Shown here piece by piece: positions 17,809-63,420 of a DNA stretch of 64,000 bases. A model generated the notes under the pieces. That model made no database searches and had not been told where the DNA came from. It saw nothing but the letters and a program-made list of their open reading frames with translations. Location: assembly GCF_046119375.1 (NCBI RefSeq), contig NW_027362772.1:63984001-64048000 (forward strand). The letters run 5' to 3'. Source of the stretch: Phyllobates terribilis. Lineage: Eukaryota. A program made the translations under genes and the position numbers. Each line of letters starts with the position of its first letter. Within the stretch, counting starts at the first letter, position 1.

Positions 17809-20317
17809 CAGGGATGTCAAACTCAAACACACAGAGAGCCAAAATTAAAATCTTGGACAAAGTCACTGGCCAACCAGTATACAGTATAATGGGCCCCACA
17901 TAGTCCTCCATACAGTATAATGGGCCCCACATAGTCCTCCATACAGTATAATGGCCCCACATAGTCCTCCATACAGTATAATGGTCGCACATAGTCCTCT
18001 ATACAGTATAATGGCCCCCACATAGTCCTCCATACAGTATAATAGGCCCCACATAGTCCTCCATACAATATAATGGCCCCACATAGTCCTCCATACAGTA
18101 TAATGGCCCCACATAGTCCTCCATACAGTATAATGGCCCCCACATAGTCCTCTATACAGAATAATGTTCCCCACATAGTCCTCCATACAGAATAATGGGC
18201 CCCACATAGTCCTCCATACAGAATAATGTTCCCCATATAGTCCGTCATACAGTATAATGGCCCCCACATAGTCCTCCATACAGTATAATGGCCCCCACAT
18301 AGTCCCCCATATAGTATAATGGCCCCACATAGTCCTTCATACAGTATAATGGCCCCACATAGTCCTCCATACAGAATAATGGCCCCCACATAGTCCTCTA
18401 TACAGAATAATGGGCCCCACATAGTCCTCCATACAGAATAATGTTCCCCACATAGCCCCCCATACAGTATAATGGCCCCCACATAGTCCTCCATACAGTA
18501 TAATGGCCCCCACATAGTCCCCCATACAGTATAATGGGCCCCACATAGTCCCCATTACAGAATAATTTTCCCCACATAGTTCTTCATACAATATAATGGC
18601 CCCACATAGTCCCCCATACAGTATAATGGCCCCCACATAGTCCTCCATACAGTATTATGGCCCCACATAGTCCTCCATACAGTATAATGTTCCCCACATA
18701 GTCGCCCATACAGTATAATGGCCCCACATAGTCCCCCATACAGTATAATGGCCCCACATAGTCCCTCATACAGTATAATGGCCCCCACATAGTCCTCCAT
18801 ACAGTATAATGGCCCCCACATAGTCCCCCATACAGTATAATGTTCCCCACATATTCCTCCATACAGTATAATGGCCCCCACATAGTCCTCCATACAGAAT
18901 AATGTTCCCCACATAGTTCTTCATACAGTATAATGTCCCCACATAGTCCTCCATACAGTATAATGTGTCCCACATAGTCCTCCATGTAGTATAATGGCCC
19001 CGCATAGTCGCCCATACAGTATAATGGCCCCACATAGTCCTCCATACAGTATAATGGCCCCCACATAGTCCTCTATACAGAATAATGTTCCCCACATAGT
19101 CCTCCATACAGAATAATGGGCCCCACATAGTCCTCCATACAGTATAATGGTCGCACATAGTCCTCCATACAGTATAATGGCCCCCACATAGTCCTCCATA
19201 CAGTATAATAGGCCCCACATAGTCCTCCATACAATATAATGGCCCCACATAGTCCTCCATGCAGTATAATGGCCCCACATAGTCCTCCATACAGTATAAT
19301 GGCCCCCACATAGTCCTCTATGCAGAATAATGTTCCCCACATAGTCCTCCATACAGAATAATGGGCCCCACATAGTCCTCCATACAGAATAATGTTCCCC
19401 ATATAGTCCCTCATACAGTATAATGGCCCCCACATAATCCTCCATACAGTATAATGGCCCCCACATAGTCCCCCATATAGTATAGTGGCCCCACATATTC
19501 CTTCATACAGTATAATGGCCCCACATAGTCCTCCATACAGAATAATGGCCCCCACATAGTCCTCTATAGAGAATAATGGGCCCCACATAGTCCTCCATAC
19601 AGAATAATGTTCCCCACATAGCCCCCCATACAGTATAATGGCCCCCACATAGTCCCCCATACAGTATAATGGCCCCCACATAGTCCTCCATACAGTATAA
19701 TGGCCCCCACATAGTCCCCCATACAGTATAATGTTCCCCACATATTCATCAATACAGTATAATGGCCCCCACATAGTCCTCCATACAGAATAATGTTCCC
19801 CACATAGTTCTTCATACAGTATAATGGCCCCACATAGTTCTCCATACAGTATAATGTGTCCCACATAGTCCTCCATATAGTATAATGGCCCCACATAGTC
19901 GCCCATACAGTATAATGGCCCCACATAGTCCCCCATACAGTATAATGGCCCCACATAGTTCCCCATACAGTATAATGGCCCCCACATAGTCCTCCATACA
20001 GTATAATGGCCACACATAGTCCCCCATACAGAATGTTCCCCACATAGTCCTCCATACAGTATAATGTGTCCCACATAGTCCTCCATACAGTACAATGGGC
20101 CCCACATAGTCCTCCATACAGTATAACGTGCACCACATAGTCCTCCATACAGTATAATGGCCCCCACATAGTCCTCCATACTGTATAATGGCCCCCACAT
20201 AGTCCTCCATACAGTATAATGGCCCCACATAGTCCTCCATACAGAATGGTGTCACGGACCAAATATAACCACCTGGCAGGCCAGATTTGCCCCACAGGCC
20301 AGAGTTTAACATGAATG
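17809..20317. mobile_element. hAT (Charlie-like) non-autonomous element filled by a minisatellite
   Basis: Left end cagggatgtcaaactc, right end gagtttaacatgaatg; flanks gtatagat / atgtagat fit the NTNTAGAN target pattern. Confidence 0.7.
17878..20245. repeat. 30-31-bp minisatellite, about 77 copies
   Basis: Unit tacagtataatggccccacatagtcctcca with variable C-runs. Confidence 0.97.
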
Positions 20318-21295: not shown

Positions 21296-22925
21296 CAGTA
21301 CAGACCAAAAGTTTGGACACACCTTCTCATTTAAAGATTTTTCTGTATTTTCATGACTATGAAAATTGAACATTCACACTGAAGGCAGCAAAACTATGAA
21401 TTAACACATGTGGAATTATATAGCTAACAAAAAAATGTGAAACAACTGAAAATATGTCTTATAATCTAGGTTCTTCAAAGTAGCCACCTTTTGCTTTGAT
21501 GACTGCTTTGCACACTCTTGGCATTCTTTTGATGAGCTTCAAGAGGTAGTCACCGGAAATGGTCTTCCAACAATCTTGAAGGAGTTCCCAGAGATGCTTA
21601 GCACTTGTTGGCCCTTTTGCCTTCACTCTGAGGTCCAGCTCACCCCAAACCATCTCAATTGGGTTCAGGTCTGGTGACTGTGGAGGCCAGGTCATTTGGC
21701 GTAGCACCCCATCACTCTCGTTCTTGGTCAAATAGCCCTTACACAGCCTGGAGGTGTGTTTGGGGTCATTGTCCTGTTGAAAAATAAATGATGGTCCAAC
21801 TAAATGCAAACCGGATGGAATAGCATGCCGCTGCAAGATGCTGTGGTAGCCATGCTGGTTCAGTATGCCTTCAATTTTGAATAAATCCCCAACAGTGTCA
21901 CCAGCAAAGCACCCCCACACCATCACACCTCCTCCTCCATGCTTCACGGTGGAAACCAGGCATGTAGAGTCCATCCGTTCACCTTTTCTGCGTCGCACAA
22001 AGACACGGTGGTTGGAACCAAAGATCTCAAATTTGGACTCATCAGACCAAAGCACAGATTTCCACTGGTCTAATGTCCATTCCTTGTGTTCTTTAGTCCA
22101 AACAAGTCTCTTCTGCTTGTTGCCTGTCCTTAGCAGTGGTTTCCTAGCAGCTATTTTAACATGAAGGCCTGCTGCACAAAGTCTCCTCTTGGCAGTTGTT
22201 GAAGAGATGTGTCTGCTGCTAGAACTCTGTGTGACATTGACCTGGTCTCTAATCTGAGCTGCGCTTAACCTGTGATTTCTGAGGCTGGTGACTCGGATAA
22301 TCTTATCCTCAGAAGCAGAGGTGACTCTTGGTCCTCTTTTCCTGGGGCGGTCCTCAAGTGAGCCAGTTTCTTTGTAGCGATTTATGGTTTTTGCAACTGC
22401 ACTTGGGGACACTTTCAAAGTTTTCCCAATTTTTCGCATTGACTGACCTTCATTTCTTAAAGTAATGATAGCCACTCATTTTTCTTTACTTAGCTGCTTT
22501 TTTCTTGCCATAATACAAATTCTAACAGTCTATTCAGGAGGACTATCAGCTGTGTATCCACCTGACTTCTGCACAACACAACTGATGGTCCCAACCCCAT
22601 TTATAAGGCAAGAAATCCCACTTATTAAACCTGACAGGGCACACCTGTGAAGTGAAAACCATTTCCGGTGACTACCTCTTGAAGCTCATCAAGAGAATGC
22701 AAAGAGTGTGCAAAGCAGCCATCAAAACAAAAGGTGGCTACTTTGAAGAACCTAGAATATAAGACATATTTTCAGTTGTTTCACACTTTTTTGTTAAGTA
22801 TATAATTCCACATGTGTTAATTCATAGTTTTGATGCCTTCAGTGTGAATGTACAATTTTCAAAGTTATGAAAATACAGAAAAATCTTTAAATGAGAAGGT
22901 GTGTCCAAACTTTTGGTCTGTACTG
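21296..22925 (-). mobile_element. Full-length Tc1-superfamily transposon, DD38E (Intruder-type), 1630 bp
   Basis: TA TSD both sides; 268-bp TIRs (21296-21563, 22658-22925) starting cagtacagaccaaaagtttggacacac; transposase on the minus strand. Confidence 0.95.
21459..22511 (-). pseudogene. DD38E transposase, 350 codons, single premature TGA at codon 12
   Basis: ATG GCA AGA AAA AAG CAG CTA AGT AAA GAA AAA TGA GTG..., then open to EEPRL*. Motifs WSDESKF, FQQDNDPKH and SPDLNPIE, with 38 residues between the second D and E. The ORF-track start at 22475 is a GTG just after the stop. Confidence 0.9.
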
Positions 22926-30445: not shown

Positions 30446-31773
30446 TGTTATGCACACGCCCGGGCTAAGCGGCGTGTGCGTGTGATTGGTAGTGATTCCA
30501 CTGGACCGTGCCGGAGAGTGAATGCCTGGAGGGGCGTGACTAGGTATTCACCCGATCCGACCAGGGTCGCACGACGGCATACGACGCCAGTGCACCAAGG
30601 AGGAACCGAGCAGAGGGACCAGGTGCTACTCCAGGACAGACCCCGGACACGGCTGTTGACCCACACAGGGGAATACAGGAACAGGCTGGTAGGCTGGCAC
30701 ACAGACTGGTGGGTATAGGCAGGCACGACTGGTATGCAGGCAGGCGGGTATGCAGGCAGGGGGGTAAAGACAAGCACAGCTAGAGTGCAGACAGGGAGGC
30801 ACTAGCAGGTAGGAACACAGGCGGGATAGGACCCAGTACACACCGGGACTCAGGAACAATACAGGCAGAGGGTTACAGGCAAGCACAGCTAGAGTGCAGA
30901 CAAGGCTGAGCAGGGAGGACAGGGCTCTGTTCACACGGAACAGACAGGAAGGGAAAGACAGAGCCAGATACTCACACAGTACTTGCAGAGACAACAAGCA
31001 GGAGTTAGGTACGAGTTCAGACTCTGCAGAAAAAGGAAGGGAACGGACATAGAGGCAAAACAGGTAAAGGACAGGAGAGAGTTCAGACTGGAACTGAGTG
31101 TACGGAGGAGACCGACACTGCAGAGGGATACAGGAGCGGGTCTGGGAATACGGCCCCCAGAAGGCGGAACGAACAGGCAAGGAGCGTGTTCAGACAGGAC
31201 AGACCAGAGAACACAAAAAGGACACAGTTCAGACACGGGAGCTGATACCGCAAAGCAGGAGACATACAGGACTCAGTTCAGACACGGGAGCTGAAACCGC
31301 AAAGCAGGAGACATACAGGACTCAGTTCAGACACGGGAGCTGATACCGCAAAGCAGGAGACATACAGGACACAGTTCAGACACGGGAGCTGATACCGCAA
31401 AGCAGGAGACATACAGGACTCAGTTCAGACACGGGAACTGATACAAAAAGCAGGAGACAAGAGACGGGACCTGGCACCTTCAGAGTGCAAGCACACACTG
31501 AAGGAAACACTATGCTCAGGCAGGGATAAAAGGGAGCTGCTGAGCTATATACCAAGTGACAGACAGCAATAGGCTGAGGACGCACAAGGGGTGTGACCCA
31601 CAGCAGGTACAAAAGGCAGGAAGTGATCGGGCGCCGCCCTTAAGCAGCAGAAACAGACACAAACAGACAGCATGGAGGGAAGCCAGAGAGACATTCTGGA
31701 CAGGAGATCAAGTGCGCCCTCTTGCACAGTGGGAGATGGACCACCATGCAAGGACGCCGCCAGGTATGTTACA
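30446..31773 (-). repeat. 3' LTR of copy 1
   Basis: Direct repeat of 33764-35091 at offset 3318; at least 3 substitutions seen; contains 49-bp tandem units starting at 31225, 31274, 31323, 31372 and 31421. Confidence 0.96.
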
Positions 31774-33620
31774 GTACCTCCCCCCTTACGCCCCCTCTTC
31801 TTCAGGCCTGCCAGAATCTTCCGCAGGGAATTCGAGGGCCAGTCGTTCACTGGGTTGGAGGGGGACAGAGACTTAAGGGTAATCTCTGCTTCGAGGTACA
31901 TCTTGTCAAGCTCACAGGAAGAAATAGACGGGTTATCAGGTACATAATGAGGAAAAGTCACTGTCTCTTTGTTATCTGGTGGTATCCCGGAGGATTCAGG
32001 AAACAACTGGAGGTCCTCCGCCGGGTCAGAAGAGTGCAGAGGCTCAGAGAAAACAACTGCTTCAGAGTACACTAGGTCGGACTCACTGGAGGAAGCAGGC
32101 GAGGTATCGGGTACCGAGTATAGGAAAGTCTCTGTCCATTCACCACCAGGTGGCACCCCGAAGGGTTCTGGAGACAGCTGGCGGTCCTCCGCCTGGTCAG
32201 AGGGGTGTAGAGACTCACGGGTAACCTCTGCTTCAGAGTACACTAGGTCGGACTCACTGGAGGAAGCAGGCGAGGTATCGGGTACCGAGTATAGGAAAGT
32301 CTCTGTCCATTCACCACCAGGTGGCACCCCGAAGGGTTCTGGAGACAGCTGGCGGTCCTCCGCCTGGTCAGAGGGGTGTAGAGACTCACGGGTAACCTCT
32401 GCTTCAGAGTACACTAGGTCGGACTCACTGGACGAAGCAAGCGAGGTATCAGATCCAGGATATAGGAAAGTCTCTGTCCATTCACCACCAGGTGGCACCC
32501 CGAAGGATTCTGAACACAACTGGAGGTCCTCCGCCTGGTCGGAGGGGTGTAGAGACTCAGGAGTAACCTCTGCTTCGGAGTACACTAAGTTGGACTCACT
32601 GGACGAAGCGAGCGAGGTATCAGGTACAGAGTATAGGAGAGTCTCTGTCCTTTCGCTACCAGGTAGCACCCCGAAGGGTTCAGGAGACAACTGGAGATCC
32701 TCCGCCTGGTCGGAGGGGTGTAGAGACTCGGAGGTAACTACCACTTTGGGGTACCCATTGTCAGGCTCACAGGACGAAGCGGACAAAGTATTGAGTACCG
32801 GGTGTAGAGAAGTCTCTCTCCATTTGTCATCGAGTGGTATCCCGGAGGGTTCAGGAGGCAACAGGGGATCCTCCGCCAGGTAGTAGAGGTGCACAGACTC
32901 TGAGGTAACCACAGCTTTGGAGCATCCTTGGACATGCACACCGGTTAAAGAGAAAGAAGCATCTGATGCCGGGTGCAGGAAGTTCTCCTGTGTGGAGTCT
33001 GGATGGGCAGAAGTCTCTTCGGCCAGGAGAACTGGTGCACTACCCACGCACATTACCCATTGGGGTTTCTCCGGGATACAGGGAGATGAAGCTTCAGTAG
33101 GGACTTCAAGGTTGGGGTCAGGAGGTCTCAGGGAGGACAGACCCTGGCGTGACGGCTTGCCTCTAAGTCTAGCACGTCTGGACTGCCTCTTGAGGTTGAG
33201 AGAAGTATTCCGGAAAGCGTAGTCACCCTGTGAGGATTCTGGGTGGGCAGTAGTCTCATTGGGCTGGAGGACTATTGCGCTACCCACACACATTACCCGT
33301 CGGGGCTGCTCCGGGATATTGGGAAGTGAAGCTTCAGCAGGGGCTTCAGAGTTAGGGTCCTCGAAGACCATACGAAAGGCCACCAGGAAGGCCTGCAGGT
33401 CAAGGATGACAGGATCCCATGCTTCCCATAGGGGGGTGACCCATTTCAAGGCATCACCCGCTAGGTAGTCAATCATAAAGGCCACTTTAGCCCAATCGGA
33501 AGGAAAATAGAGAGGGTAGGCCTTAAAGTGTAGCATGCATTGCTCCACAAATGCACGACACTGTCTTGGATCCCCATAGTAACGTGGCGGATCCGCAGGA
33601 ACGAGGGCTGATAGATCCAT
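31545..33620 (-). CDS. 691-aa Gag capsid-NTD (Retrotrans_gag/DUF4939-like) plus acidic 57-aa repeat protein, copy 1
   Basis: Intact ATG-to-TAG ORF. N-terminus PPRYYGDPRQCRAFVEQC...SDWAKVAFMIDYLAGDALKWVTPLW...FLVAFRMVFEDP matches the Sushi/PEG10/RTL8/LDOC1 capsid-NTD pattern. Expression untested. Confidence 0.75.
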   Translation of the reverse strand: MDLSALVPADPPRYYGDPRQCRAFVEQCMLHFKAYPLYFPSDWAKVAFMIDYLAGDALKWVTPLWEAWDPVILDLQAFLVAFRMVFEDPNSEAPAEASLPNIPEQPRRVMCVGSAIVLQPNETTAHPESSQGDYAFRNTSLNLKRQSRRARLRGKPSRQGLSSLRPPDPNLEVPTEASSPCIPEKPQWVMCVGSAPVLLAEETSAHPDSTQENFLHPASDASFSLTGVHVQGCSKAVVTSESVHLYYLAEDPLLPPEPSGIPLDDKWRETSLHPVLNTLSASSCEPDNGYPKVVVTSESLHPSDQAEDLQLSPEPFGVLPGSERTETLLYSVPDTSLASSSESNLVYSEAEVTPESLHPSDQAEDLQLCSESFGVPPGGEWTETFLYPGSDTSLASSSESDLVYSEAEVTRESLHPSDQAEDRQLSPEPFGVPPGGEWTETFLYSVPDTSPASSSESDLVYSEAEVTRESLHPSDQAEDRQLSPEPFGVPPGGEWTETFLYSVPDTSPASSSESDLVYSEAVVFSEPLHSSDPAEDLQLFPESSGIPPDNKETVTFPHYVPDNPSISSCELDKMYLEAEITLKSLSPSNPVNDWPSNSLRKILAGLKKRGRKGGGTVTYLAASLHGGPSPTVQEGALDLLSRMSLWLPSMLSVCVCFCCLRAAPDHFLPFVPAVGHTPCASSAYCCLSLGI

Positions 33621-33763
33621 CTGGACGGGTGCGTAATTCGCCTGGAACTCAGCTAAAGGGGGAAAAAAATTTATTTATTTTATTTTAATGCATGTATTCG
33701 CTGGAAAAACTTCTCAAAGAGCGAAGGCCGTGGGGCTCAACGGGAACCATGGCCTGAGCATGC

Positions 33764-35091
33764 TGTTATGCACACGCCCGGGCTAAGCGGCGTGTGCGTG
33801 TGATTGGTAGTGATTCCACTGGACCGTGCTGGAGAGTGAATGCCTGGAGGGGCGTGACTAGGTATTCACCCGATCCGACCAGGGTCGCACGACGGCATAC
33901 GACGCCAGTGCACCAAGGAGGAACCGAGCAGAGGGACCAGGTGCTACTCCAGGACAGACCCCGGACACGGCTGTTGACCCACACAGGGGAATACAGGAAC
34001 AGGCTGGTAGGCTGGCACACAGACTGGTGGGTATAGGCAGGCACGACTGGTATGCAGGCAGGCGGGTATGCAGGCAGGGGGGTAAAGACAAGCACAGCTA
34101 GAGTGCAGACAGGGAGGCACTAGCAGGTAGGAACACAGGCGGGATAGGACCCAGTACACACCGGGACTCAGGAACAATACAAGCAGAGGGTTACAGGCAA
34201 GCACAGCTAGAGTGCAGACAAGGCTGAGCAGGGAGGACAGGGCTCTGTTCACACGGAACAGACAGGAAGGGAAAGACAGAGCCAGATACTCACACAGTAC
34301 TTGCAGAGACAACAAGCAGGAGTTAGGTACGAGTTCAGACTCTGCAGAAAAAGGAAGGGAACGGACATAGAGGCAAAACAGGTAAAGGACAGGAGAGAGT
34401 TCAGACTGGAACTGAGTGTACGGAGGAGACCGACACTGCAGAGGGATACAGGAGCGGGTCTGGGAATACGGCCCCCAGAAGGCGGAACGAACAGGCAAGG
34501 AGCGTGTTCAGACAGGACAGACCAGAGAACACAAAAAGGACACAGTTCAGACACGGGAGCTGATACCGCAAAGCAGGAGACATACAGGACTCAGTTCAGA
34601 CACGGGAGCTGAAACCGCAAAGCAGGAGACATACAGGACTCAGTTCAGACACGGGAGCTGATACCGCAAAGCAGGAGACATACAGGACACAGTTCAGACA
34701 CGGGAGCTGATACCGCAAAGCAGGAGACATACAGGACTCAGTTCAGACACGGGAACTGATACAAAAAGCAGCAGACAAGAGACGGGACCTGGCACCTTCA
34801 GAGTGCAAGCACACACTGAAGGAAACACTATGCTCAGGCAGGGATAAAAGGGAGCTGCTGAGCTATATACCAAGTGACAGACAGCAATAGGCTGAGGACG
34901 CACAAGGGGTGTGACCCACAGCAGGTACAAAAGGCAGGAAGTGATCGGGCGCCGCCCTTAAGCAGCAGAAACAGACACAAACAGACAGCATGGAGGGAAG
35001 CCAGAGAGACATTCTGGACAGGAGATCAAGTGCGCCCTCTTGCACAGTGGGAGATGGACCACCATGCAAGGACGCCGCCAGGTATGTTACA
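33764..35091 (-). repeat. 5' LTR of copy 1
   Basis: Followed on the minus strand by gc + atgctcaggc (33761-33752), the non-tRNA PBS. Confidence 0.96.
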
Positions 35092-38614: not shown

Positions 38615-40140
38615 CAGTGGGGGAAAAAAATATTTGATCCCTTGCTGTTTTTGTAAGTTTGCCCACTGACAAAGACATGAACAATCTATAATTTTAAGGG
38701 TAGGTTAATTTTAACATTGAGAGATAGAATATCCCCAAAAAAAAAATTCAAGAAAATCACATTGTATAAATTAGATAAATTTATTAGCATTTTGCAGTGA
38801 GAAATAAGTATTTGATCCCTGTGGCAAACAACACTTAATACTTGGTGGCAAAACCCTTGTTGGCAAGCACAGCAGTCAGACGTTTTTTGTAGTTGATGAT
38901 GAGGGTTGCGCACATGTCAGGAGGAGTTTTGGTCCACTCCTCTTTGCAGATCATCTCTAAATCATTCAGATTTTGAGACTGTCACTTGGCAACTCGGAGC
39001 TTCAACTCCCTCCATAAGTTTTCTATGGGATTAAGGTCTGGAGACTGGCTAGGCCAATCCATGACCCTAATGTGCTTCTTTTTGAGCCACTCCTTTGTTG
39101 CCTTGCCTTGTATGTTTTGGGACATTGTCTTGCTGGAAGACCCAGCCACGACCCATTTTTAATGTCCTGGCGGAGGGAAGGAGGTTGTCACTCAGAATTT
39201 TACGGTACATGGCTCCATCCATTCTCCCATTAATACAGTGAAGTATTCCTGTGCCCTTAGCAGAGAAACACCCCCAAAACATAATGTTTCCACCTCCATG
39301 CTTGACAGTGGGGATGGTATCATAGGCACCATTTTTCTTCCTCCAAACACGGCGAGTTGAGTTAATGCCACAAAGCTCAATTTTTGTCTCGTCTGACCAC
39401 AGCACCTTCTCCCAATAACTCACATAATTATCCAGGTGTTCATTGGCAAACTTCAGACGGGCCTGCACATGTGCCTTCTTGAGCAGGGGGACCTTGCGGG
39501 CACTGCAGAATTTTAAACCTTTCAGGCGTAATGTGTTACCAATGGTTTTCTTGGTGATTCTGGTCCCAGCTGCCTTGAGATCATTAACAAGTTCCCCCCG
39601 TGTAGTTTTAGGCTGATCTCTCACCTTCCTCATGATCAAGTATACCCCACGAGATGAGATTTTGCATGGTGCCCCAGATCGATGCCTCAGCGTCTTACTT
39701 ATGATTTTGTAGCCCGTTCCAGCTATGTGCAGGTCTATGATCTTGTCCCTGACATCCTTAGAAAGCTCTTTGGTCTTGCCCATGTTGTAGAGGTTAGAGT
39801 CTGACTGATTAATTGAGTCTGTGGACAGGAGTCTTTTATATAAGTGACTATGTAAGACAGCTGTCTTTAATGCAGGTAACGAGTTGAATAGGAGCGTCTA
39901 ACTGGTCTGTAGGAGCCAGAACTCATAATGGTTTGTAGGGGATCAAATACTTATTTCTCACTGCAAAATACAAAAAAAATGTCTAATTTATACAATGTGA
40001 TTTTCTTGATTTTTTTTTTGGGATATTCTATCTCTCAAAGTTAAAATTAACCTACCCTTAAAATTATAGACTGTTCATGTCTTTGTCAGTGGGCAAACTT
40101 ACAAAAACAGCAAGGGATCAAATACTTATTTCCCCCACTG
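38615..40140 (-). mobile_element. Tc1 IR/DR-type transposon (Frog Prince/Sleeping Beauty-like), internally deleted and frameshifted
   Basis: TA|cagtggggga ... tcccccactg|TA, about 215-bp TIRs. ORF 39067-39783 reads [17 protein letters not shown]...WSDETKIEL...FQQDNVPKH, with a deletion after ISKTL. Confidence 0.93.
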
Positions 40141-43812: not shown

Positions 43813-45500
43813 TAATACAAAGTACAACTAATTGTTTTTATATTAAGTTTAATTAGTCATTGTGAAGTCACAGTCATTACGTGAGGCCCACATACATGTC
43901 TTCATTGTGGCAGGTGGTCATGTCACAGATAAAAAACATGTATTATATACTGTAATTCCATTAATAATGAGCTTGCGTGACGTGAGAGCCTTAACGTATC
44001 GGACAACGGAGGGCACAGTTATTACAATAGGTGATAATGTTATTGCATATTGTTTTTGGAAAGGGTCATTAGTTTAAATATAAGGGGATCATTCAGCAGA
44101 AACCGAGATGCCGCTGCCAATTCTGACCATGAATTGAGATTTGCTTGAACATAACCCAGTCTTAGTTTATTAGAAGCTTTCGCTAACTATGTAATTGTTC
44201 GTTGGTGGAAAATTAATCAGCATCGAATCCAGCCGATCTTATTAAAAAGCCGTCTATAAGCTTGGATGTCAGTTCCCCTGTTGGGGGACATCTCTCTTCA
44301 ATAGAGGGGGGGGGGGTAATAGATCTCATTGAAAAGGGGGTCCCGCTGGTTGAAGACCAAGGTCTCATCGGAAGCTGAGTCTTTAGGATGCCTTCCTCAC
44401 TAATTACACTGAAGCTCTCTGGAAGTCACTGTCATCCATTGAGGCCGTCTCATTGTTTGATAAGTAATCTTCATTATTGGAAGTAATTGAATGGATCTAA
44501 GGGACTGACCCCCCTGATATGCTTACACTACAACTCCCAAGATGCTCTGCTCAAAATGACAGGTTGTAAAGGTTTATTAAAAGAGAAATATTTGAAATTG
44601 ATATTATTAATGTAGAGACTATTTCATGGTCTCCGAGGTCAATTATTTATTGGTAGCTCTAGTAAATAGCAATTTAAAATGAATAGTAATAAAGCAGGTA
44701 TCTTTTTTTTTAAGGAGACAGATAATGCTTTAAGCCATCATTGGAAGGAAGCTTTAGCATTTGTAGCTTTTTTTCCCCAAAATTAATTGGAGAACGGGTC
44801 TGGTCTTAGCAAAGGTCACAGTCTTTGAGGGCACTCGATGGACTCTGCCTGCTATTTCTTTGCATAGTATTTTTCATACGAGAGCTGCAGCTCTCCGCGT
44901 ATCTCCTTGGAAGTAGCACCTTTTAAGAGCATCCTTTCGCCTTAAATGTAGTCTCTTTCTCATTTGTAAGCAGTTTCTCGCCTTGAAAAGCAGTTTCATG
45001 CAGTGATTTGAAAGTGTCCATCATCCTTCAAAGAGCAGAATGTGGTTGGGGCTTGCATGTACGTGTAACATGTTTGCATGTTACATGGTTACGGCACAGC
45101 AGGAAAGTGCGATCTTTTTAGGCTCGTGGCTTCTTTTGTGTCTTTTGCTGTCATGATGTCTTGGGTATTGTCTATGTTTTAGCTCCGAGTACTATGCCAA
45201 TCTCTCAGTAACCTGTTTCATCTACACCTCATATTCCTCCTCGCTTGCTCTGGCACGCTTGCTGTACTTGGCTTGACTTCTCATGCATCTTCTTCCCAGC
45301 GTTCCTCATTGTCATCTTAACGTAACAGCCTGAAACCTATGGATTAGATGCCCTTGGTCAACTCTTACCCGCTGGCGACTGCCACTCGTGTCCCGGTCAA
45401 ACCTCTACCCCTCTGTGGTATCGATGTCCGACTGCTCGTTTGTTGGAATAATTGAGGAAATTATGAAACAATGAAAGAATTGAGAATTAATTTTTATACT

Positions 45501-47917
45501 AAAGGGCGGACAACCTGTGGGCTACCGGCAGTTCTAGAAGGACACATTCCGGTATGCCCTGATTCCTAGCAGCAGTTCTAGAAGGACACATTCCGGTATG
45601 CCTTGATTGCTACCGGCAGTTCTAGAAGGACACATTCCGGTATGCCCTGATTCCTACCAGCAGTTCTAGAAGGACACATTCCGGTATGCCCTGATTGCTA
45701 TCGGCAGTTCTAGAAGGACATATTCCGGTATGCCCTGATTGCTTCCGGCAGTTCTAGAAGGACACATTCCAGTATGCCCTGATTGCTATCGGCAGTTCTA
45801 GAAGGACACATTCCGGTATGCCCTGATTGCTACCGACAGTTCTAGAAGGACACATTCCGGTATGCCCTGATTGCTACCGGCATTTCTAGAAGGACACATT
45901 CCGGTATACCCTGATTCCTACCGACAGTTCTAGAAGGACACATTCTGGTATGCCCTGATTGCTACCGGCATTTCTAGAAGGAAACATTCCGGTATGCCCT
46001 GATTGCTACCGGCAGTTCTAGATGGACACATTACGGTATGCCCTGATTGCTATCGGCAGTTCTAGAAGGACACATTCCGGTATGCCCTGATTGCTACCGA
46101 CAGTTCTAGAAGGACACATTCCGGTATGCCCTGATTGCTACTGGCATTTCTAGAAGGACACATTCCGGTATCCCCTGATTCCTACCAGCAGTTCTAGAAG
46201 GACACATTCCGGTATGTCCTGATTCCCACCGGCAGTTCTAGAAGGACACATTCCAGTATGCTCTGATTCCAACCGGCAGTTCTAGAAGAACACATTCCGG
46301 TATGCCCTGATTGCTACCGACAGTTCTAGAAGCACACATTCCGGTATGCTCTGATTCCTAACGGCAGTTCTAGAAGGACACATTCCGGTATGCCCTGATT
46401 GCTACCGGCAGTTCTAGAAGGACACATTCCGGTATGTCCTGGCTGCTACCGGCAATTCTAGAAGGACACATTCCGGTATGCCCTGATTGCTACCGGCAAT
46501 TCTAGAAGGACACAGTCCGGTATGCCCTGATTCCTACCAGTAGTTCTAGAAGGACACATTCCGGTATGCCCTGATTCCAACCGGCAGTTCTAGAAGGACA
46601 CATTCCGGTATGCCCTGATTCCTACCGGCAGTTCTAGAAGGACACATTCCGGTATCTCCTGATTGCTACCGGCATTTCTAGAAGGACACATTTTGGTATG
46701 CCCTGATTCCCACCGCAGTTCTAGAAGGACACATTCTGATATGCCCTGATTCCTACCGGCAGTTCTAGAAGGACACATTCCGGTATGCCCTGATTGCTAC
46801 CGGCAGTTCTAGAAGGACACATTCCAGTATGCCCTGATTGCTACCGGCAGTTCTAGAAGGACACATTCCGGTATGCCCTAATTCCTACCGGCAGTTCTAG
46901 AAGGACACATTCCCGTATGTCCTGACTGCTACCGGCAATTCTAGAAGGACACATTCCGGTATGCCCTGATTGCTACCGGCAATTCTAGAAGGACACATTC
47001 CGGTATGCCCTGATTCCTACCAGCAGTTCTAGAAGGACACATTCCGGTATGCCCTGATTCCAACCGGCAGTTCTAGAAGGACACATTCCGGTATGCCCTG
47101 ATTCCTACCGGCAGTTCTAGAAGGACACATTCCAGTATGCCCTGATTGCTACCGGCAGTTCTAGAAGGACACATTCCGGTATGCCCTAATTCCTACCGGC
47201 AGTTCTAGAAGGACACATTCCCGTATGTCCTGACTGCTACCGGCAATTCTAGAAGGACACATTCCGGTATGCCCTGATTGCTACCGGCAATTCTAGAAGG
47301 ACACATTCCGGTATGCCCTGATTCCTACCAGCAGTTCTAGAAGGACACATTCCGGTATGCCCTGATTCCAACCGGCAGTTCTAGAAGGACACATTCCGGT
47401 ATGCCCTGATTCCTACCGGCAGTTCTAGAAGGACACATTCCGGTATCTCCTGATTGCTACCGGCATTTCTAGAAGGACACATTTTGGTATGCCCTGATTG
47501 CTACCGGCAGTTCTAGAAGGACACATTCCGGTATGCCCTGATTGCTACCGGCAGTTCTAGAAGGACACATTCCGGTATGCCCTAATTCCTACCGGCAGTT
47601 CTAGAAGGACACATTCCGGTATGCCCTAATTCCTACCGGCAGTTCTAGAAGGACACATTCCGGTATGCTCTGATTGCTACCGGCAGTTCTAGAAGGACAC
47701 ATTCCGGTATGTCCTGACTGCTACCGGCAGTTCTAGAAGGACACATTTTGGTATACCCTGATTGCTACCGGCAGTTCTAGAAGGACATATTCCGGTATGC
47801 CCTGATTCCTACGGGCAGTTCTGGAAGGACACATTCCGGTATGCCCTGATTGCTAAAGGAACCTTTAGACTTGCAGCCTTGTCTGTCTGCCGGTAGCCTA
47901 CAGTTTGCCCAGGTTTG
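45501..47917. mobile_element. Probable hAT-derived element consisting almost entirely of a 44-bp array
   Basis: Inverted flanks ggacaacctgtgggctaccggcag (45508-31) and ctgccggtagcctacagtttgccc (47887-910). No TSD recognised. Confidence 0.55.
45521..47855. repeat. 44-bp minisatellite, about 53 copies
   Basis: Unit gctaccggcagttctagaaggacacattccggtatgccctgatt; gttctagaag recurs at 45531 and 45575. Confidence 0.97.
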
Positions 47918-53558: not shown

Positions 53559-54067
53559 TGTGAGACGGTCACTGCTAAAATACTAGAGGGGAAATATGTA
53601 TCACTGAGGATGGTAGCTTCAGTGATATGAACTTGGAAAAATGTTCCAGCACACTATGTGCTGAGAGGGGTTAATCGGCCATATTAAGGGCTGGGTTTTT
53701 GTGAACAGCTGAAGAGAGGGTGTGAGGCTGTTCACCATATATCCACACCCAGGGTGTGGTCCAGAAGGTAAATGTGGAGCCTTTGGACTCATTCAGTCTT
53801 CGGTGTGTCTGGAGATGAGATCTCCAGAGCCGTGCTCATGTTAAAGAGAACTGAACCTTGTATTGTCCCCCTGAGCGGGTGGATCCCCGCAGCCACACAG
53901 ACTACTGTATGTTATTTTGTTTTTCCTGTTATGCCAGAAGGGCGGGTTTATTTTACTTAACATTGCACTGGTTGATGCAGTACATTTTTAATAAACCAGT
54001 TGAAAACGTAAATGAAAAGTGTTCCTGTGACTACCTCCTTGAGCAGCTGAGTGAGCCGATCTCCCAC
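53559..54067 (+). mobile_element. Probable older solo LTR, about 510 bp
   Basis: TATAT|tgtgagac ... gatctcccac|TATAT, with AATAAA near the 3' end (taataaaccagttg); terminal CA imperfect. Confidence 0.5.
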
Positions 54068-54273
54068 TATATATAATCTGTCATATCTATGTTTTCGTAT
54101 AAATGAGCATTAGATATATTGGAGATTGCTGCGGTTTATTTTATTGCGTCTGATTCACATCTTCAGGAGAGAGTATACCTAATACACATGTCAAGTGTTC
54201 AATGTGATAAACTGTGATTTTACTGAATTTGTGTGGATGAAACCGAAACCCAATTGACCCCCATTATAGTTAT

Positions 54274-55626
54274 TGTAACATACCTGGCGGCGTCCTTGCA
54301 TGGTGGTCCATCTCCCACTGTGCAAGAGGGCGCACTTGATCTCCTGTCCAGAATGTCTCTCTGGCTTCCCTCCATGCTGTCTGTTTGTGTCTGTTTCTGC
54401 TGCTTAAGGGCGGCGCCCGATCACTTCCTGCCTTTTGTACCTGCTGTGGGTCACACCCCTTGTGCGTCCTCAGCCTATTGCTGTCTGTCACTTGGTATAT
54501 AGCTCAGCAGCTCCCTTCTATCCCTGCCTGTGCATAGTGTTTTCCTTCAGTGTGTGCTTGCACTCTGAAGGTGCCAGGTCCCGTCTCTTGTCTCCTGCTT
54601 TTTGTATCAGTTCCCGTGTCTGAACTGAGTCCTGTATTTCTCCTGCTTTGTGGTATCAGCTCCCGTGTCTGAACTGAGTCCTGTATGTCTCCTGCTTTGC
54701 GGTATCAGCTCCCGTGTCTGAACTGAGTCCTGTATGTCTCCTGCTTTGCGGTATCAGCTCCCGTGTCTGAACTGACTCCTTTCTGTGTTCTCTTGTCTGT
54801 CCTGTCTGAACACGCTCCTAGCCTGTTCCTCTCGCCTTCTAGTGGCCGATTTCCTAGACCCGCTCCTGTGTCTGGTCTGTCCTGTCTGAACACGCTCCTT
54901 GCCTGTTCGTTCCGCCTCTCTGGGGGCCGTATTCCCAGACCCGCTCCTGTATCCCTCTGCAGTGTCGGTCTCCTCCGTACACTCAGTTCCAGTCTGAACT
55001 CTCTCCTGTCCTTTACCTGTTTTGCCTCTATGTCCGTTCCCTTCCTTTTTCTGCAGAGTCTGAACTCGTACCTAACTCCTGCTTGTTGTCTCTGCAAGTA
55101 CTGTGTGAGTATCTGGCTCTGTCTTTCCCTTCCTGTCTGTTCCGTGTGAACAGAGCCCTGTCCTCCCTGCTCAGCCTTGTCTGCACTCTAGCTGTGCTTG
55201 CCTGTAACCCTCTGCCTGTATTGTTCCTGAGTCCCGGTGTGTACTGGGTCCTATCCCGCCTGTGTTCCTACCTGCTAGTGCCTCCCTGTCTGCACTCTAG
55301 CTGTGCTTGCCTTTACCCCCCTGCCTGCATACCCGCCTGCCTGCATTCCAGTCGTGCCTGCCTATACCCTCCAGTCTGTGTACCAGCCTGTTCCTGTATT
55401 TCCCTGTGTGGGTCAACAGCCGTGTCCGGGGTCTGTCCTGGAGTAGCACCTGGTCCCTCTGCTCGGTTCCTCCTTGGTGCACTGGCGTCGTATGCCGTCG
55501 TGCGACCCTGGTCGGATCGGGTGAATACTTAGTCACGCCCCTCCAGGTATTCACTCTCCGGCACGGTCCAGTGGAATCACTATCAATCACACGCACACGC
55601 CGCTTAGCCCGGGCGTGTGCATAACA
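54274..55626 (+). repeat. 5' LTR of copy 2
   Basis: tgtaacatacc ... gtgtgcataaca; repeated at 57619-58971, at least 2 substitutions seen. Confidence 0.96.
54496..54535 (+). promoter_or_regulatory. LTR TATA box and predicted transcription start / self-primer GCCTGTGCAT (54526-35)
   Basis: TATATA at 54496; the 10-mer complementary to the PBS starts exactly 30 nt downstream. Confidence 0.7.
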
Positions 55627-55628
55627 GC

Positions 55629-55638
55629 ATGCACAGGC
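55629..55638 (+). other. Non-tRNA primer-binding site ATGCACAGGC
   Basis: Starts 2 nt after the LTR's terminal CA; lacks the TGG of tRNA PBSs; perfect reverse complement of 54526-35. Confidence 0.8.
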
Positions 55639-55771
55639 CATGGTTCCCGTTGAGCCCCACGGCCTTCGCTCTTTGAGAAGTTTTTCCAGCGAATACATGC
55701 ATTAAAATAAAATAAATAAATTTTTTTTTCCCCCTTTAGCTGAGTTCCAGGCGAATTACGCACCCGTCCAG

Positions 55772-57847
55772 ATGGATCTATCAGCCCTCGTTCCTGCGGA
55801 TCCGCCACGTTACTATGGGGATCCAAGACAGTGTCGTGCATTTGTGGAGCAATGCATGCTACACTTTAAGGCCTACCCTCTCTATTTTCCTTCCGATTGG
55901 GCTAAAGTGGCCTTTATGATTGACTACCTAGCGGGTGATGCCTTGAAATGGGTCACCCCCCTATGGGAAGCATGGGATCCTGTCATCCTTGACCTGCAGG
56001 CCTTCCTGGTGGCCTTTCGTATGGTCTTCGAGGACCCTAACTCTGAAGCCCCTGCTGAAGCTTCACTTCCCAATATCCCGGAGCAGCCCCGACGGGTAAT
56101 GTGTGTGGGTAGCGCAATAGTCCTCCAGCCCAATGAGACTACTGCCCACCCAGAATCCTCACAGGGTGACTACGCTTTCCGGAATACTTCTCTCAACCTC
56201 AAGAGGCAGTCCAGACGTGCTAGACTTAGAGGCAAGCCGTCACGCCAGGGTCTGTCCTCCCTGAGACCTCCTGACCCCAACCTTGAAGTCCCTACTGAAG
56301 CTTCATCTCCCTGTATCCCGGAGAAACCCCAATGGGTAATGTGCGTGGGTAGTGCACCAGTTCTCCTGGCCGAAGAGACTTCTGCCCATCCAGACTCCAC
56401 ACAGGAGAACTTCCTGCACCCGGCATCAGATGCTTCTTTCTCTTTAACCGGTGTGCATGTCCAAGGATGCTCCAAAGCTGTGGTTACCTCAGAGTCTGTG
56501 CACCTCTACTACCTGGCGGAGGATCCCCTGTTGCCTCCTGAACCCTCCGGGATACCACTCGATGACAAATGGAGAGAGACTTCTCTACACCCGGTACTCA
56601 ATACTTTGTCCGCTTCGTCCTGTGAGCCTGACAATGGGTACCCCAAAGTGGTAGTTACCTCCGAGTCTCTACACCCCTCCGACCAGGCGGAGGATCTCCA
56701 GTTGTCTCCTGAACCCTTCGGGGTGCTACCTGGTAGCGAAAGGACAGAGACTCTCCTATACTCTGTACCTGATACCTCGCTCGCTTCGTCCAGTGAGTCC
56801 AACTTAGTGTACTCCGAAGCAGAGGTTACTCCTGAGTCTCTACACCCCTCCGACCAGGCGGAGGACCTCCAGTTGTGTTCAGAATCCTTCAGGGTGCCAC
56901 CTGGTGGTGAATGGACAGAGACTTTCCTATATCCTGGATCTGATACCTTGCTTGCTTCGTCCAGTGAGTCCGACCTAGTGTACTCTGAAGCAGAGGTTAC
57001 CCGTGAGTCTCTACACCCCTCTGACCAGGCGGAGGACCGCCAGCTGTCTCCAGAACCCTTCGGGGTGCCACCTGGTGGTGAATGGACAGAGACTTTCCTA
57101 TACTCGGTACCCGATACCTCGCCTGCTTCCTCCAGTGAGTCCGACCTAGTGTACTCTGAAGCAGAGGTTACCCGTGAGTCTCTACACCCCTCTGACCAGG
57201 CGGAGGACCGCCAGCTGTCTCCAGAACCCTTCGGGGTGCCACCTGGTGGTGAATGGACAGAGACTTTCCTATACTCGGTACCCGATACCTCGCCTGCTTC
57301 CTCCAGTGAGTCCGACCTAGTGTACTCTGAAGCAGTTGTTTTCTCTGAGCCTCTGCACTCTTCTGACCCGGCGGAGGACCTCCAGTTGTTTCCTGAATCC
57401 TCCGGGATACCACCAGATAACAAAGAGACAGTGACTTTTCCTCATTATGTACGTGATAACCCGTCTATTTCTTCCTGTGAGCTTGACAAGATGTACCTCG
57501 AAGCAGAGATTACCCTTAAGTCTCTGTCCCCCTCCAACCCAGTGAACGACTGGCCCTCGAATTCCCTGCGGAAGATTCTGGCAGGCCTGAAGAAGAGGGG
57601 GCGTAAGGGGGGAGGTACTGTAACATACCTGGCGGCGTCCTTGCATGGTGGTCCATCTCCCACTGTGCAAGAGGGCGCACTTGATCTCCTGTCCAGAATG
57701 TCTCTCTGGCTTCCCTCCATGCTGTCTGTTTGTGTCTGTTTCTGCTGCTTAAGGGCGGCGCCCGATCACTTCCTGCCTTTTGTACCTGCTGTGGGTCACA
57801 CCCCTTGTGCGTCCTCAGCCTATTGCTGTCTGTCACTTGGTATATAG
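55772..57847 (+). CDS. 691-aa Gag capsid-NTD plus acidic 57-aa repeat protein, copy 2
   Basis: Intact ORF; three amino-acid differences from copy 1 in the track (SESFG>R, DTSL>DTLL, YVPD>YVRD); the last ~75 codons lie in the 3' LTR. Confidence 0.75.
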   Translation: MDLSALVPADPPRYYGDPRQCRAFVEQCMLHFKAYPLYFPSDWAKVAFMIDYLAGDALKWVTPLWEAWDPVILDLQAFLVAFRMVFEDPNSEAPAEASLPNIPEQPRRVMCVGSAIVLQPNETTAHPESSQGDYAFRNTSLNLKRQSRRARLRGKPSRQGLSSLRPPDPNLEVPTEASSPCIPEKPQWVMCVGSAPVLLAEETSAHPDSTQENFLHPASDASFSLTGVHVQGCSKAVVTSESVHLYYLAEDPLLPPEPSGIPLDDKWRETSLHPVLNTLSASSCEPDNGYPKVVVTSESLHPSDQAEDLQLSPEPFGVLPGSERTETLLYSVPDTSLASSSESNLVYSEAEVTPESLHPSDQAEDLQLCSESFRVPPGGEWTETFLYPGSDTLLASSSESDLVYSEAEVTRESLHPSDQAEDRQLSPEPFGVPPGGEWTETFLYSVPDTSPASSSESDLVYSEAEVTRESLHPSDQAEDRQLSPEPFGVPPGGEWTETFLYSVPDTSPASSSESDLVYSEAVVFSEPLHSSDPAEDLQLFPESSGIPPDNKETVTFPHYVRDNPSISSCELDKMYLEAEITLKSLSPSNPVNDWPSNSLRKILAGLKKRGRKGGGTVTYLAASLHGGPSPTVQEGALDLLSRMSLWLPSMLSVCVCFCCLRAAPDHFLPFVPAVGHTPCASSAYCCLSLGI
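57605..57615 (+). other. Polypurine tract
   Basis: (gaagaagagggggcgt)aaggggggagg-tac|tgtaaca, immediately before the 3' LTR. Confidence 0.85.
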
Positions 57848-58971
57848 CTCAGCAGCTCCCTTCTATCCCTGCCTGTGCATAGTGTTTTCCTTCAGTGTGT
57901 GCTTGCACTCTGAAGGTGCCAGGTCCCGTCTCTTGTCTCCTGCTTTTTGTATCAGTTCCCGTGTCTGAACTGAGTCCTGTATTTCTCCTGCTTTGCGGTA
58001 TCAGCTCCCGTGTCTGAACTGAGTCCTGTATGTCTCCTGCTTTGCGGTATCAGCTCCCGTGTCTGAACTGAGTCCTGTATGTCTCCTGCTTTGCGGTATC
58101 AGCTCCCGTGTCTGAACTGACTCCTTTCTGTGTTCTCTTGTCTGTCCTGTCTGAACACGCTCCTAGCCTGTTCCTCTCGCCTTCTAGTGGCCGATTTCCT
58201 AGACCCGCTCCTGTGTCTGGTCTGTCCTGTCTGAACACGCTCCTTGCCTGTTCGTTCCGCCTCTCTGGGGGCCGTATTCCCAGACCCGCTCCTGTATCCC
58301 TCTGCAGTGTCGGTCTCCTCCGTACACTCAGTTCCAGTCTGAACTCTCTCCTGTCCTTTACCTGTTTTGCCTCTATGTCCGTTCCCTTCCTTTTTCTGCA
58401 GAGTCTGAACTCGTACCTAACTCCTGCTTGTTGTCTCTGCAAGTACTGTGTGAGTATCTGGCTCTGTCTTTCCCTTCCTGTCTGTTCCGTGTGAACAGAG
58501 CCCTGTCCTCCCTGCTCAGCCTTGTCTGCACTCTAGCTGTGCTTGCCTGTAACCCTCTGCCTGTATTGTTCCTGAGTCCCGGTGTGTACTGGGTCCTATC
58601 CCGCCTGTGTTCCTACCTGCTAGTGCCTCCCTGTCTGCACTCTAGCTGTGCTTGCCTTTACCCCCCTGCCTGCATACCCGCCTGCCTGCATTCCAGTCGT
58701 GCCTGCCTATACCCTCCAGTCTGTGTACCAGCCTGTTCCTGTATTTCCCTGTGTGAGTCAACAGCCGTGTCCGGGGTCTGTCCTGGAGTAGCACCTGGTC
58801 CCTCTGCTCGGTTCCTCCTTGGTGCACTGGCGTCGTATGCCGTCGTGCGACCCTGGTCGGATCGGGTGAATACTTAGTCACGCCCCTCCAGGTATTCACT
58901 CTCCGGCACGGTCCAGTGGAATCACTATCAATCACACGCACACGCCGCTTAGCCCGGGCGTGTGCATAACA
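57619..58971 (+). repeat. 3' LTR of copy 2
   Basis: Direct repeat of 54274-55626. Confidence 0.96.
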
Positions 58972-59084
58972 GTTATAACCCTTTGGTATTCAAAATGTAT
59001 AGTTATGTACTAAATTTTAAAACACTGGGTGCCAACCTGACACTGCCTGTAGTCTACTTAGGTATGCTGATGACAAGGGTAAGC

Positions 59085-61733: not shown

Positions 61734-62800
61734 TGTAACGGGTCTGGGAGGCGGAACCTCTGAGCTACTATACAAGGGGGCGGTCCTTGTAAGGGAGCGG
61801 GTGGCGACCAGGGAAGACGGGCTGGAAGTCTCAGCAGGTGAACGGGACAGTCTCTGAGTGAACGGGCCAGTCTCTGAGTGAACGGGCTGGAGGTCACGGC
61901 AAGTGACCGGGGCAGTCTCTAGGTATAGGGTTGGTACGACCTGTGGCGGCTGAAGATAGACGTGAGCTCCCAGGTGAGCAGGCGAGAGTCTCTGGATGAA
62001 CGGGTGGTCACAGCATGTGACGGCGGAGCCTCCAGGAAGACCAGCGGACAGGCGACAGATGAGCGCTCCCAGGTGAGCGGGCAGAAGTCTCTGGACAGGC
62101 GGGTGGTCACAGCACGTGACGGCAGAGCCTCCGGGTAGGCAAGCAGACTGGTAGCAGATGAGCGCTCCCAGGTGAGCGGGCAGGAGTCACTGGACAGGCA
62201 GGTGGTCACAGCACGTGACGGCGGAGCCTCCAGGTAGGCTAGCAGGCAGGTAGCAGATGTGCGCTCCCAGGTGAGCGGGCAAGCTGGTCCATAGACAGAC
62301 TGACAGGAGTTGGAAGGCAGACCGTCGGACCACAGGCAAGCAGGCAGGTAGCTGATGAGCGCTCCCAGGTGAGCGGGCAGGCTGGTCCTTAGACAGACTG
62401 ACAGGATTAGTAAGGCAGACCGTCGGACCTCAGACTAGCAGGCAGGTAGCAAGTAATCAGGCAGGAATCTGGCAGGTAACTGGCAGGTAACTGGCAACGG
62501 GACCTGAGGGCTGAAGCACAGGTGAGACACAGGTGCAAACAACATTGCTCGGGCACCTCCATTTTGGAGGAGGTGCCTTATATATGGTAAAGTCCTCCGG
62601 CCATTGGCCGGGGACTCCTTAGGACGGCGCGCGCGGCCCCTTTAAGAGGGAGGGAGAGCGCGCGCGCGCGCGCCCTAAGCGTAGTGGCCGGGAAGGAGCG
62701 CGCGCTGCCAGCAGAGTGGGAGAGGGACGCCGGGCACGGAGCAGAGCGGTGAGGGGAACAGCGTCCCTGCCTAGCAGAGGGCAGGGACGCCGGCACTACA
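61734..62800 (-). mobile_element. Solo LTR, 1067 bp
   Basis: ATGAA|tgtaacg ... cactaca|ATGAA; TATATAA on the minus strand at 62584-78; GC-rich U3 with a (GC)n run; internal tandem repeats. Confidence 0.92.
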
Positions 62801-62839: not shown

Positions 62840-63420
62840 TGTCATGCAAGGTGTGGGAAAGACTAAGTGCAACACGAAGGGAAGAGAGGGAGGAAGCCCA
62901 AACACTAGGGAAAGGGGGAGTGGAGACCCCTAGGCAGATCTAATATCACCCTGCCTACCCTACTGTCCCTATATAGGTTCCATACTTATCGCCAAGCAGG
63001 ACCCTAAGCCCTGTATGTCCCTAGAGCTTGGCTCTATTTAGGGAGGGGGAGGGGTGAGCACTGGTCAGGCCCCACTACAAACTAAAGACAATAAGGTAGA
63101 CAAACAAAGGGAATAAACTTAGCTTGAGCAAACACCAGAGGAGTAACGCCAACTGTTCTCCAAGGGTGCCAGAGAAGAAGCTAGCCGACTGCTAGTGCTC
63201 CAAGCCTGCACAAAGATACATAGAAGTATCACCGGTGATTCCCTGGAGCAAACAGTGTTTTTAATTCCCAAACAAAGGTGTGTCAATCAGCAGCAGGAGG
63301 CAGGTCGCTGCTGGGTCCTAAAGGAAGAAGGGTTAAGAAGGGGTCTGCAGTGCCAAGCGCAGTGACCTTCTACATCCAGATCCAGAGCGACTGTCTACTA
63401 CACCTGACCCACCCGTGACA
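62840..63420 (-). mobile_element. Solo LTR, 581 bp, same family as 27536-28091
   Basis: GTTAG|tgtcatgcaaggtgtgggaaagactaagtgcaacac ... cccgtgaca|GTTAG. Confidence 0.92.

Follow-up and report, generated by a model that had tools for sequence, protein, structure and literature searches.

A pol-less LTR retrotransposon family of Phyllobates terribilis that is probably primed by the 5' end of its own RNA

A complete LTR retrotransposon lacking pol lies within a 64,000-nt stretch of the Phyllobates terribilis genome (contig NW_027362772.1, positions 63,984,001 to 64,048,000; hereafter the window, whose numbering is used throughout). It very probably represents a Tf1/sushi-related family in which minus-strand synthesis is primed by the capped first 10 nucleotides of the family's own RNA, with reverse transcriptase (RT) likely provided by a chromovirus resembling the family designated here E2. 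The narrower statement, that the primer derives from the element's own RNA, can be made with slightly greater confidence still. Judged from its sequence, the family is a non-autonomous relative of vertebrate chromoviruses that would work like Tf1. It is regarded as a relative and not as a full chromovirus member since it has no pol: RT/integrase (IN) with a C-terminal chromodomain, which characterizes the V-clade chromoviruses, is missing from the focal family, so its placement relies only on the capsid and on cis-acting signals.

The focal element (54274-58971, forward strand) is flanked by a 5-bp target site duplication (TSD), GTTAT, at 54269-54273 on the left and 58972-58976 on the right. 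Its 5' LTR (54274-55626) and 3' LTR (57619-58971) are 1353 nt long each and differ at two positions; the 5' LTR starts with TG, ends with CA, and contains neither AATAAA nor ATTAAA. A polypurine tract (PPT, 57592-57618) ends in GGTAC, as in E2. A 691-aa ORF (55772-57847) encodes a capsid N-terminal domain and acidic Ser/Pro/Glu repeats. The capsid match is weak (DUF4939, 27.6 bits, under the Pfam cut-off of 29), a Pfam scan of the ORF detected no RT, integrase or any other pol domain, and a protein search with ORF residues 1-100 returned 41 candidates (380-1210 aa), none of them with E≤0.001. An upstream ORF of 21 codons (55640-55705) begins at the C-ATGG that follows the primer binding site (PBS), the site where the autonomous relative begins gag. 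Read by eye, the segment 55701-55739 (an A/T tract, a pyrimidine run, and TTTAG before the ATG of the long ORF) resembles a 3' splice site; splicing from R to this putative site would bypass the PBS and seven upstream ATGs. To the left of the element, a stretch at 53559-54067 is similar to a solo LTR, with a TG start and TATAT flanks.

The PBS and its partner were found exactly where the initial annotation had located them. A 2-nt spacer, gc (55627-55628), separates the LTR end from the PBS ATGCACAGGC (55629-55638), which places the primer 3' end 2 nt from the LTR edge. The reverse complement, GCCTGTGCAT (54526-54535), begins 30 nt past the TATA box TATATA (54496-54501) and constitutes the predicted RNA 5' end and self-primer. 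Both sites of the focal copy carry rare variants, T at R position +6 (54531) and A at 55633 in the PBS, whose majority form is ATGCTCAGGC. Priming by a full tRNA 3' end requires a match to CCA, i.e., a TGG in the PBS. As TGG is absent from the end of the LTR and from the 13 nt next to it, the PBS lacks a complement to a full tRNA 3' end; in the tRNA-Lys(ttt) gene set, the one compared, the best match to the PBS is 6 nt long.

The probability of a chance 10-mer, originally given as 0.13%, proved too low: the 10-mer turned up in 32 of 3000 dinucleotide shuffles of this T/C-rich LTR, or about 1%. The case thus rests on the position of the 10-mer and on co-variation, with a chance occurrence of about 1% before position is considered. 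All 10 nucleotides are complementary at TATA+30 in the focal copy, in 39 of 39 background copies and in a second full copy of the window, copy B (30446-35091, reverse strand, TSD CTTTA). Copy B carries the majority pair, i.e., R GCCTGAGCAT (34830-34839, reverse strand, present in both LTRs) and PBS ATGCTCAGGC (33752-33761, reverse strand), so that both pairing partners differ from those of the focal copy at the paired base and the two copies form a reciprocal pair. The distance from a TATA-like box to the start of R is 30 nt under unrelated U3 sequences, too (L179, L185, and six loci of the TTACA subfamily), and a spacing of 30 or 31 nt recurs in two other families, E2 and E3. In L179, L185, L212, L224 and L227, differing U3s precede an identical R 10-mer with unchanged TATA spacing; U3 swaps appear to have happened there at the U3/R border. 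All three families have C directly after the PBS (55639 in the focal element; L151-L165; L238-L264), except for a T in one of 15 E2 loci, and this base stands opposite the predicted position of the primer cap.

Counted as exact LTR-PBS pattern matches over the whole 10.57-Gb assembly, the focal family has at least 8,650 junctions. In the 5,381 with the main LTR end, PBS position 5 is T in 5,316, A in 64, G in one, and C in none; the focal copy is hence a rare variant (PBS-A, 64/5,381), a rarity overlooked earlier. In the other 3,269 junctions the LTR ends differently, with TTACA in all 30 loci that were read. They were considered as a candidate autonomous family with an identical PBS, which was rejected: all 30 loci belong to the same pol-less-type family, and no CCHC Gag was found within 1.5 kb of any of them. 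Among 77 full copies, LTR length ranges from 1,128 to 2,118 nt, a 5-bp TSD is present in 71, and the ORF for the capsid and acidic repeats is intact in 70 (488-740 aa). The family is young and has recently retrotransposed, as the median LTR-LTR divergence in these copies is 0.07% and 30 of the 77 LTR pairs have no substitutions. Two LTRs, a PPT, a TSD, and recent spread without pol are the properties of a non-autonomous LTR retrotransposon. The ORF that stays open may be under selection, e.g., to co-assemble with the Gag of a helper.

The PBS allele follows the R allele of the same copy in part. Of the LTRs that share the common context, 372 carry T at R+6 and 6,448 carry another base, which gives a genome-wide frequency of R-T of 5.5% (372/6,820). 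All 64 PBS-A places were fetched, and 54 insertions were left after the removal of duplicates and of copies in which R was deleted or out of range. R-T, the matching allele, is present in 29 of these, the majority R in 23, and other alleles in two. R-T is accordingly enriched tenfold over background (binomial 1e-22), and in the main subfamily considered separately it occurs in 14 of 23 PBS-A insertions (1e-12); both values are overstated, since the copies share ancestry and are not independent. The rare PBS base is nearly always the compensating one (64 A versus one G), and the matched majority pair was found in 39 of 39 background copies (20 picked as PBS-T, 19 as R-A). Coupling is nevertheless partial, and mismatched copies are abundant: R is mismatched in 25 of the 54 PBS-A insertions, and of the 42 multi-LTR insertions with R-T among the matches listed, only 5 carry PBS-A, 36 of the remaining 37 having been read directly as PBS-T.

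The double variants do not constitute one clade, since none of 84 sites distinguishes R-T/PBS-A from R-T/PBS-T copies (lowest p=0.037); the focal copy itself is identical to an R-T/PBS-T copy (L093) at every compared site except the PBS. Near-identical double-variant sisters do occur (L019/L062 and L053/L058), and a second subfamily is enriched for both rare alleles. Homoplasy was assessed on leave-one-out trees of 127 insertions by counting changes per site against shuffled data. PBS position 5 requires 30 changes, 0.73 times the shuffled value, and ranks third among the 24 sites in its block; R+6 requires 33 (0.78 times, second of 18). Both results are inflated by the sampling of rare alleles. 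The recurrent A>T change at R+6 is unlinked to its flanks (|D'| of 0.15 with U3 and 0.27 with R from position 11 onwards). Coupling could have arisen by primer copying or by selection for a match; either route would imply that the pairing must work.

The same architecture was found in two further families represented by solo LTRs on the reverse strand of the window. In E2, an autonomous chromovirus family (solo LTR 61734-62800, TATA 62579-62584, R 10-mer 62545-62554), the 10-mer at TATA+30 of this LTR was used to predict the PBS blind, and the predicted pattern was searched genome-wide. It yielded 13,415 matches with a 2-nt spacer and none for the reversed control; R matches the PBS in 14 of 15 loci. 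All 10 loci examined encode a CCHC Gag, and eight of them have a pol frame of at least 1,000 aa. The two pol proteins scanned contain PR, RT, RNase H, IN, SH3_Tf2-1 and Chromo (E=4e-11) domains, and their best relative of solved structure is Ty3 Gag-Pol. With a CCHC Gag, the domain order PR-RT-RH-IN, a chromodomain, and an overlapping -1 pol frame, E2 has the features of V-clade chromoviruses such as sushi-ichi, Amn-san, Amn-ichi and Amn-ni. Its Gag is 49% identical to the focal capsid over 89 aa (E=7e-31), and the two families agree in eight of 10 primer letters, in the C-ATGG that follows the PBS (the gag start in E2), and in the GGTAC end of the PPT. Sequence relatedness of this kind makes E2 a candidate helper, and the chances that it is the actual source of RT are about even. 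Among the matches listed, E2 LTR pairs lie 3.4-4.0 kb apart in addition to 5.1-5.5 kb, a spacing which suggests that internally deleted E2 derivatives exist. One focal-family copy (L166) is nested within the pol frame of an E2 element.

E3 is an older gypsy family (solo LTR 62840-63420, R 10-mer 63227-63236) with older, broken copies. Eight of its 30 loci carry a shared PBS, which occurs in four versions. In these eight loci, the complement of the copy's own R is perfect in three, contains one G-U pair in two, one mismatch in one and two mismatches in one, and was not found in one; in most of them it lies 30-31 nt past a TATA-like box.

When the natural leader was folded from 54526, the primer helix had a predicted probability of 0.93-0.99 in matched copies. 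With the leader extended by 250 nt at its 3' end, the value was 0.5 in the focal copy and 0.9 and 0.2 in two other matched copies (range 0.22-0.91). One mismatch lowers the predicted probability to at most 0.01 in all five mismatched copies folded, though such copies are abundant. Beside the primer helix, TGTT (54538-54541) is predicted to pair with AACA at the LTR end (55623-55626), with a probability of 0.47-0.65 for this 4-bp helix. A U5 hairpin resembling the U5-IR (55593-55620) has a 9-bp stem, GCACACGCC/GGCGTGTGC, with every pair intact in 191 of 196 junctions (duplicates included); its loop varies. A duplex between U5 and the leader is not claimed: the sequences are complementary in 195 of 196 junctions, yet its probability is at most 0.01 in full folds. 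The three-duplex 'pretzel' of Tf1 is thus matched in part only by the predicted structure.

The position directly upstream of the putative RNA start (-1, 54525) shows a recurrent T>G change in other copies, which is likely a footprint of cap copying. Among the matches listed, G occupies this position in 14 of 100 R-A LTRs and 27 of 100 R-T LTRs, and in all 81 full copies compared the two LTRs have the same base here. No other site in its 18-site block is as homoplastic (15 changes for 18 copies), and position -1 was not sampled for. A T>G change immediately before a start site is also reported for HIV-1, where cap copying causes it at a rate of about 5% per cycle (PMC12172438), and owing to this resemblance, with the change in both LTRs, the RNA is inferred to start at G54526. 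TATA spacing and the recurrent -1 G provide indirect support for the R 10-mer as the RNA 5' end. HIV-1 differs in being primed by tRNA and in copying R to the cap as a rule, which strict self-priming should not do. The -1 G fits strict cis priming badly, because a minus strand primed in cis should stop at +11/+12; it may instead stem from a fraction of events in which a second RNA served as primer. By class, G is found at -1 in one of 29 R-T/PBS-A, 11 of 37 R-T/not-PBS-A, four of 24 R-A/PBS-A, and six of 36 background copies; the contrast between matched-rare and mismatched copies (1/29 versus 11/37) has a post hoc p=0.008, and that with the background p=0.12. In E2, -1 G is rare: 349 LTRs have a non-T base against 13,415 full junctions, with G in 39 of the first 100 of the 349 listed, 13 G pairs and no A pairs. 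Two further ideas were discarded. If a single primer oligonucleotide were copied into both R and PBS in one step, -1 G should be more frequent in R-T/PBS-A copies, and the opposite was seen (1/29). A cleavage footprint at +11/+12 (AG, ATG and AAG variants) is not claimed, as ATG tracks a subfamily.

In the proposed mechanism, RNA polymerase II would start the transcript at G54526, and nucleotides 1-10 would form a helix with the PBS beside the U5 hairpin, at a distance of 2 nt from the LTR end. RT/RNase H of a helper would free a 3'-OH after nucleotide 10 or 11, as in Tf1, and then copy U5 and R. The plus strand would copy the primer, whereby the PBS could take the primer's allele. For a share of events, the primer would come from a second RNA, the template would be copied to its cap, and G would appear at -1 in both LTRs. 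RNAs would then exchange their capped 5' 10-mers in a mixed mode of priming: priming in cis would rewrite the PBS and give products that do not copy the cap, while priming in trans would keep the template uncleaved and gain the -1 G. This mixed mode is put forward tentatively, and a substantial trans share in priming is likewise conceivable but somewhat doubtful. The initial annotation had proposed self-priming across a ~1.1-kb R-U5 loop with a helper RT. Its self-derived primer and helper RT are supported by allele coupling, the blind E2 prediction, and the co-varying E3 versions; cis self-priming is probably only a part of the process, since mismatched copies are common and the -1 change resembles cap copying. 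The novelty it suggested for such evidence has to be narrowed, because self-priming had already been described for the Tf1/sushi group, including vertebrates, while the population evidence obtained here is unusually good.

Strict cis self-priming of the Tf1 type, with -1 G generated by slippage on G+1 or by selection and not by cap copying, is a serious alternative whose probability falls only a little short of even. As the T>G change adjoins G+1, slippage would yield the same letter; the change is rare in the autonomous E2, the class contrast is post hoc, and the background contrast is not significant. However, the frequency of -1 G and its constant presence in both LTRs would exceed ordinary slippage, and the top homoplasy rank of the site is reminiscent of HIV-1 cap copying (PMC12172438). 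Another explanation concerns the coupling, which might have arisen with PBS-A formed by U5 fold-back and R-T by template switching, the two co-occurring through subfamily membership and selection for a match. A possible template is available in the U5-end motif TGTGCAT (55616), which both rare alleles match: it could form a 7-bp hairpin with PBS-A and is identical to positions +4 to +10 of R-T. E2 has no such hairpin donor. The 23 PBS-A insertions with the majority R and the near-identical sister pairs are also in line with such an origin. The persistence of R-T enrichment in the main subfamily (14/23 versus 5.5%) and the lack of a clade of double variants argue against it, and it is considered rather unlikely. 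Even so, it would alter only the step in which the plus strand rewrites the PBS, and selection for a match would still need functional pairing.

It is improbable that a host RNA (a tRNA end or fragment, or a small RNA) acts as primer, with the helix between 5' end and PBS bringing the cap beside the AUG for translation or packaging. The PBS adjoins C-ATGG in the focal family and in E2, where this ATG starts gag, as such a role would have it. A TGG is present at 55641, where 8 nt presumably resemble the start of a tRNA-Glu PBS; however, it is 14 nt away from the LTR end, which is fixed by the 3' LTR and the TSDs (71/77 copies). For the pol-less Xenopus LTR element xretpos(L), tRNA-Arg has been suggested as primer (PMC4585706). 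Variation of the PBS between and within families, in step with the copy's own R, is not expected of a fixed host primer, and the 6-nt match in the tRNA-Lys(ttt) set is short. Least probable by far is that the complementarity is due to chance or is a dead relic and that copies spread without it. A 10-mer arises in about 1% of shuffled LTRs and mismatched copies are common, but the exact TATA+30 position under several unrelated U3s, the blind E2 prediction, and retrotransposition as recent as 0.07% divergence speak against such an origin. A primer supplied by the family's own RNA is the preferred reading.

Self-priming was demonstrated for Tf1 in fission yeast and is 'implicated' from fungi to vertebrates (PMC4600332); it is presented as a common Tf1/sushi trait over this range, with credit to Butler et al. 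2001 (10.1101/2022.12.06.519325, PMC6317226, PMC4600332), and as described for the group in both yeast and vertebrates (PMC6317226). The Tf1 primer is reported to be cleaved between bases 11 and 12 (PMC7175516) and to be copied into the cDNA at its PBS end (PMC11042837). Like the self-primed Ty3/gypsy chromoviruses Tf1/Tf2 (Schizosaccharomyces pombe), Tj1 and Tosmo1-3, the focal family has a PBS by the terminal CA that complements its own predicted 5' end, and predicted extra U5 pairing (PMC7175516, 10.1101/2022.12.06.519325, PMC4600332). It differs from this group in a primer of 10 instead of 11 nt, a loop of about 0.9-1.9 kb, and the lack of pol; compared with Tf1, two of the three 'pretzel' duplexes are predicted, -1 G resembles cap copying, and self-priming is predicted from sequence and not demonstrated by experiment. 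A DUF4939-type capsid, TGT...ACA ends, and a 5-bp TSD are shared with the vertebrate V-clade elements, for which a chromodomain in Silurana is reported only in Amn-san (PMC4131045). The Xenopus laevis elements 1a11, xretpos(L) and lambda-olt 2-1 are LTR elements without pol as well, likened here by description only (PMC4585706). 1a11 encodes a 71-kDa Gag-like protein, and xretpos(L) is set apart by its suggested tRNA-Arg primer (PMC4585706).

The thousands of very young copies provide population-level support for tRNA-free priming in a large animal-type genome. This support comes from a PBS allele that follows the R allele of the same copy, from a blind prediction borne out in an autonomous family of 13,000 copies, and from a -1 footprint that may map the RNA start. 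An enzyme-less element can evidently retain self-priming signals over a loop of 1-2 kb. Should the trans share be real, primer sharing between RNAs would be a twist not found in the literature searched, which lay outside most subscription papers and yielded no report that describes trans priming, cap footprints, or the tracking of alleles for elements of this kind. If priming is indeed mixed, the genome copies themselves would reveal, with no experiment needed, where the RNA starts, which RNA donated the primer and how priming took place. Self-priming elements might also escape the competition of tRNA fragments at the PBS.

Several other features were observed. Tandem copies apparently sharing an LTR were seen at L127, L134, L096-L098, and on contig C1 near 86.49-86.50 Mb. 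Insertion of Tf1 without integrase is reported to give such copies (PMC11042837), and unequal recombination would be another source. In the window, frames for Tc1/mariner transposases (Pfam HTH_Tnp_Tc3_2, DDE_3) lie at 21459-22475 and 39067-39897, both on the reverse strand. The flanks of copy B are also Tc1/mariner-like and, by eye, copy B seems to be inserted in such an element. Four regions of the window (about 45390-47000+, 17880-20250, 13720-14350, and 10592-11160) are occupied by tandem arrays with units of 44, about 31, and 66 nt and by a self-complementary stretch of 570 nt.
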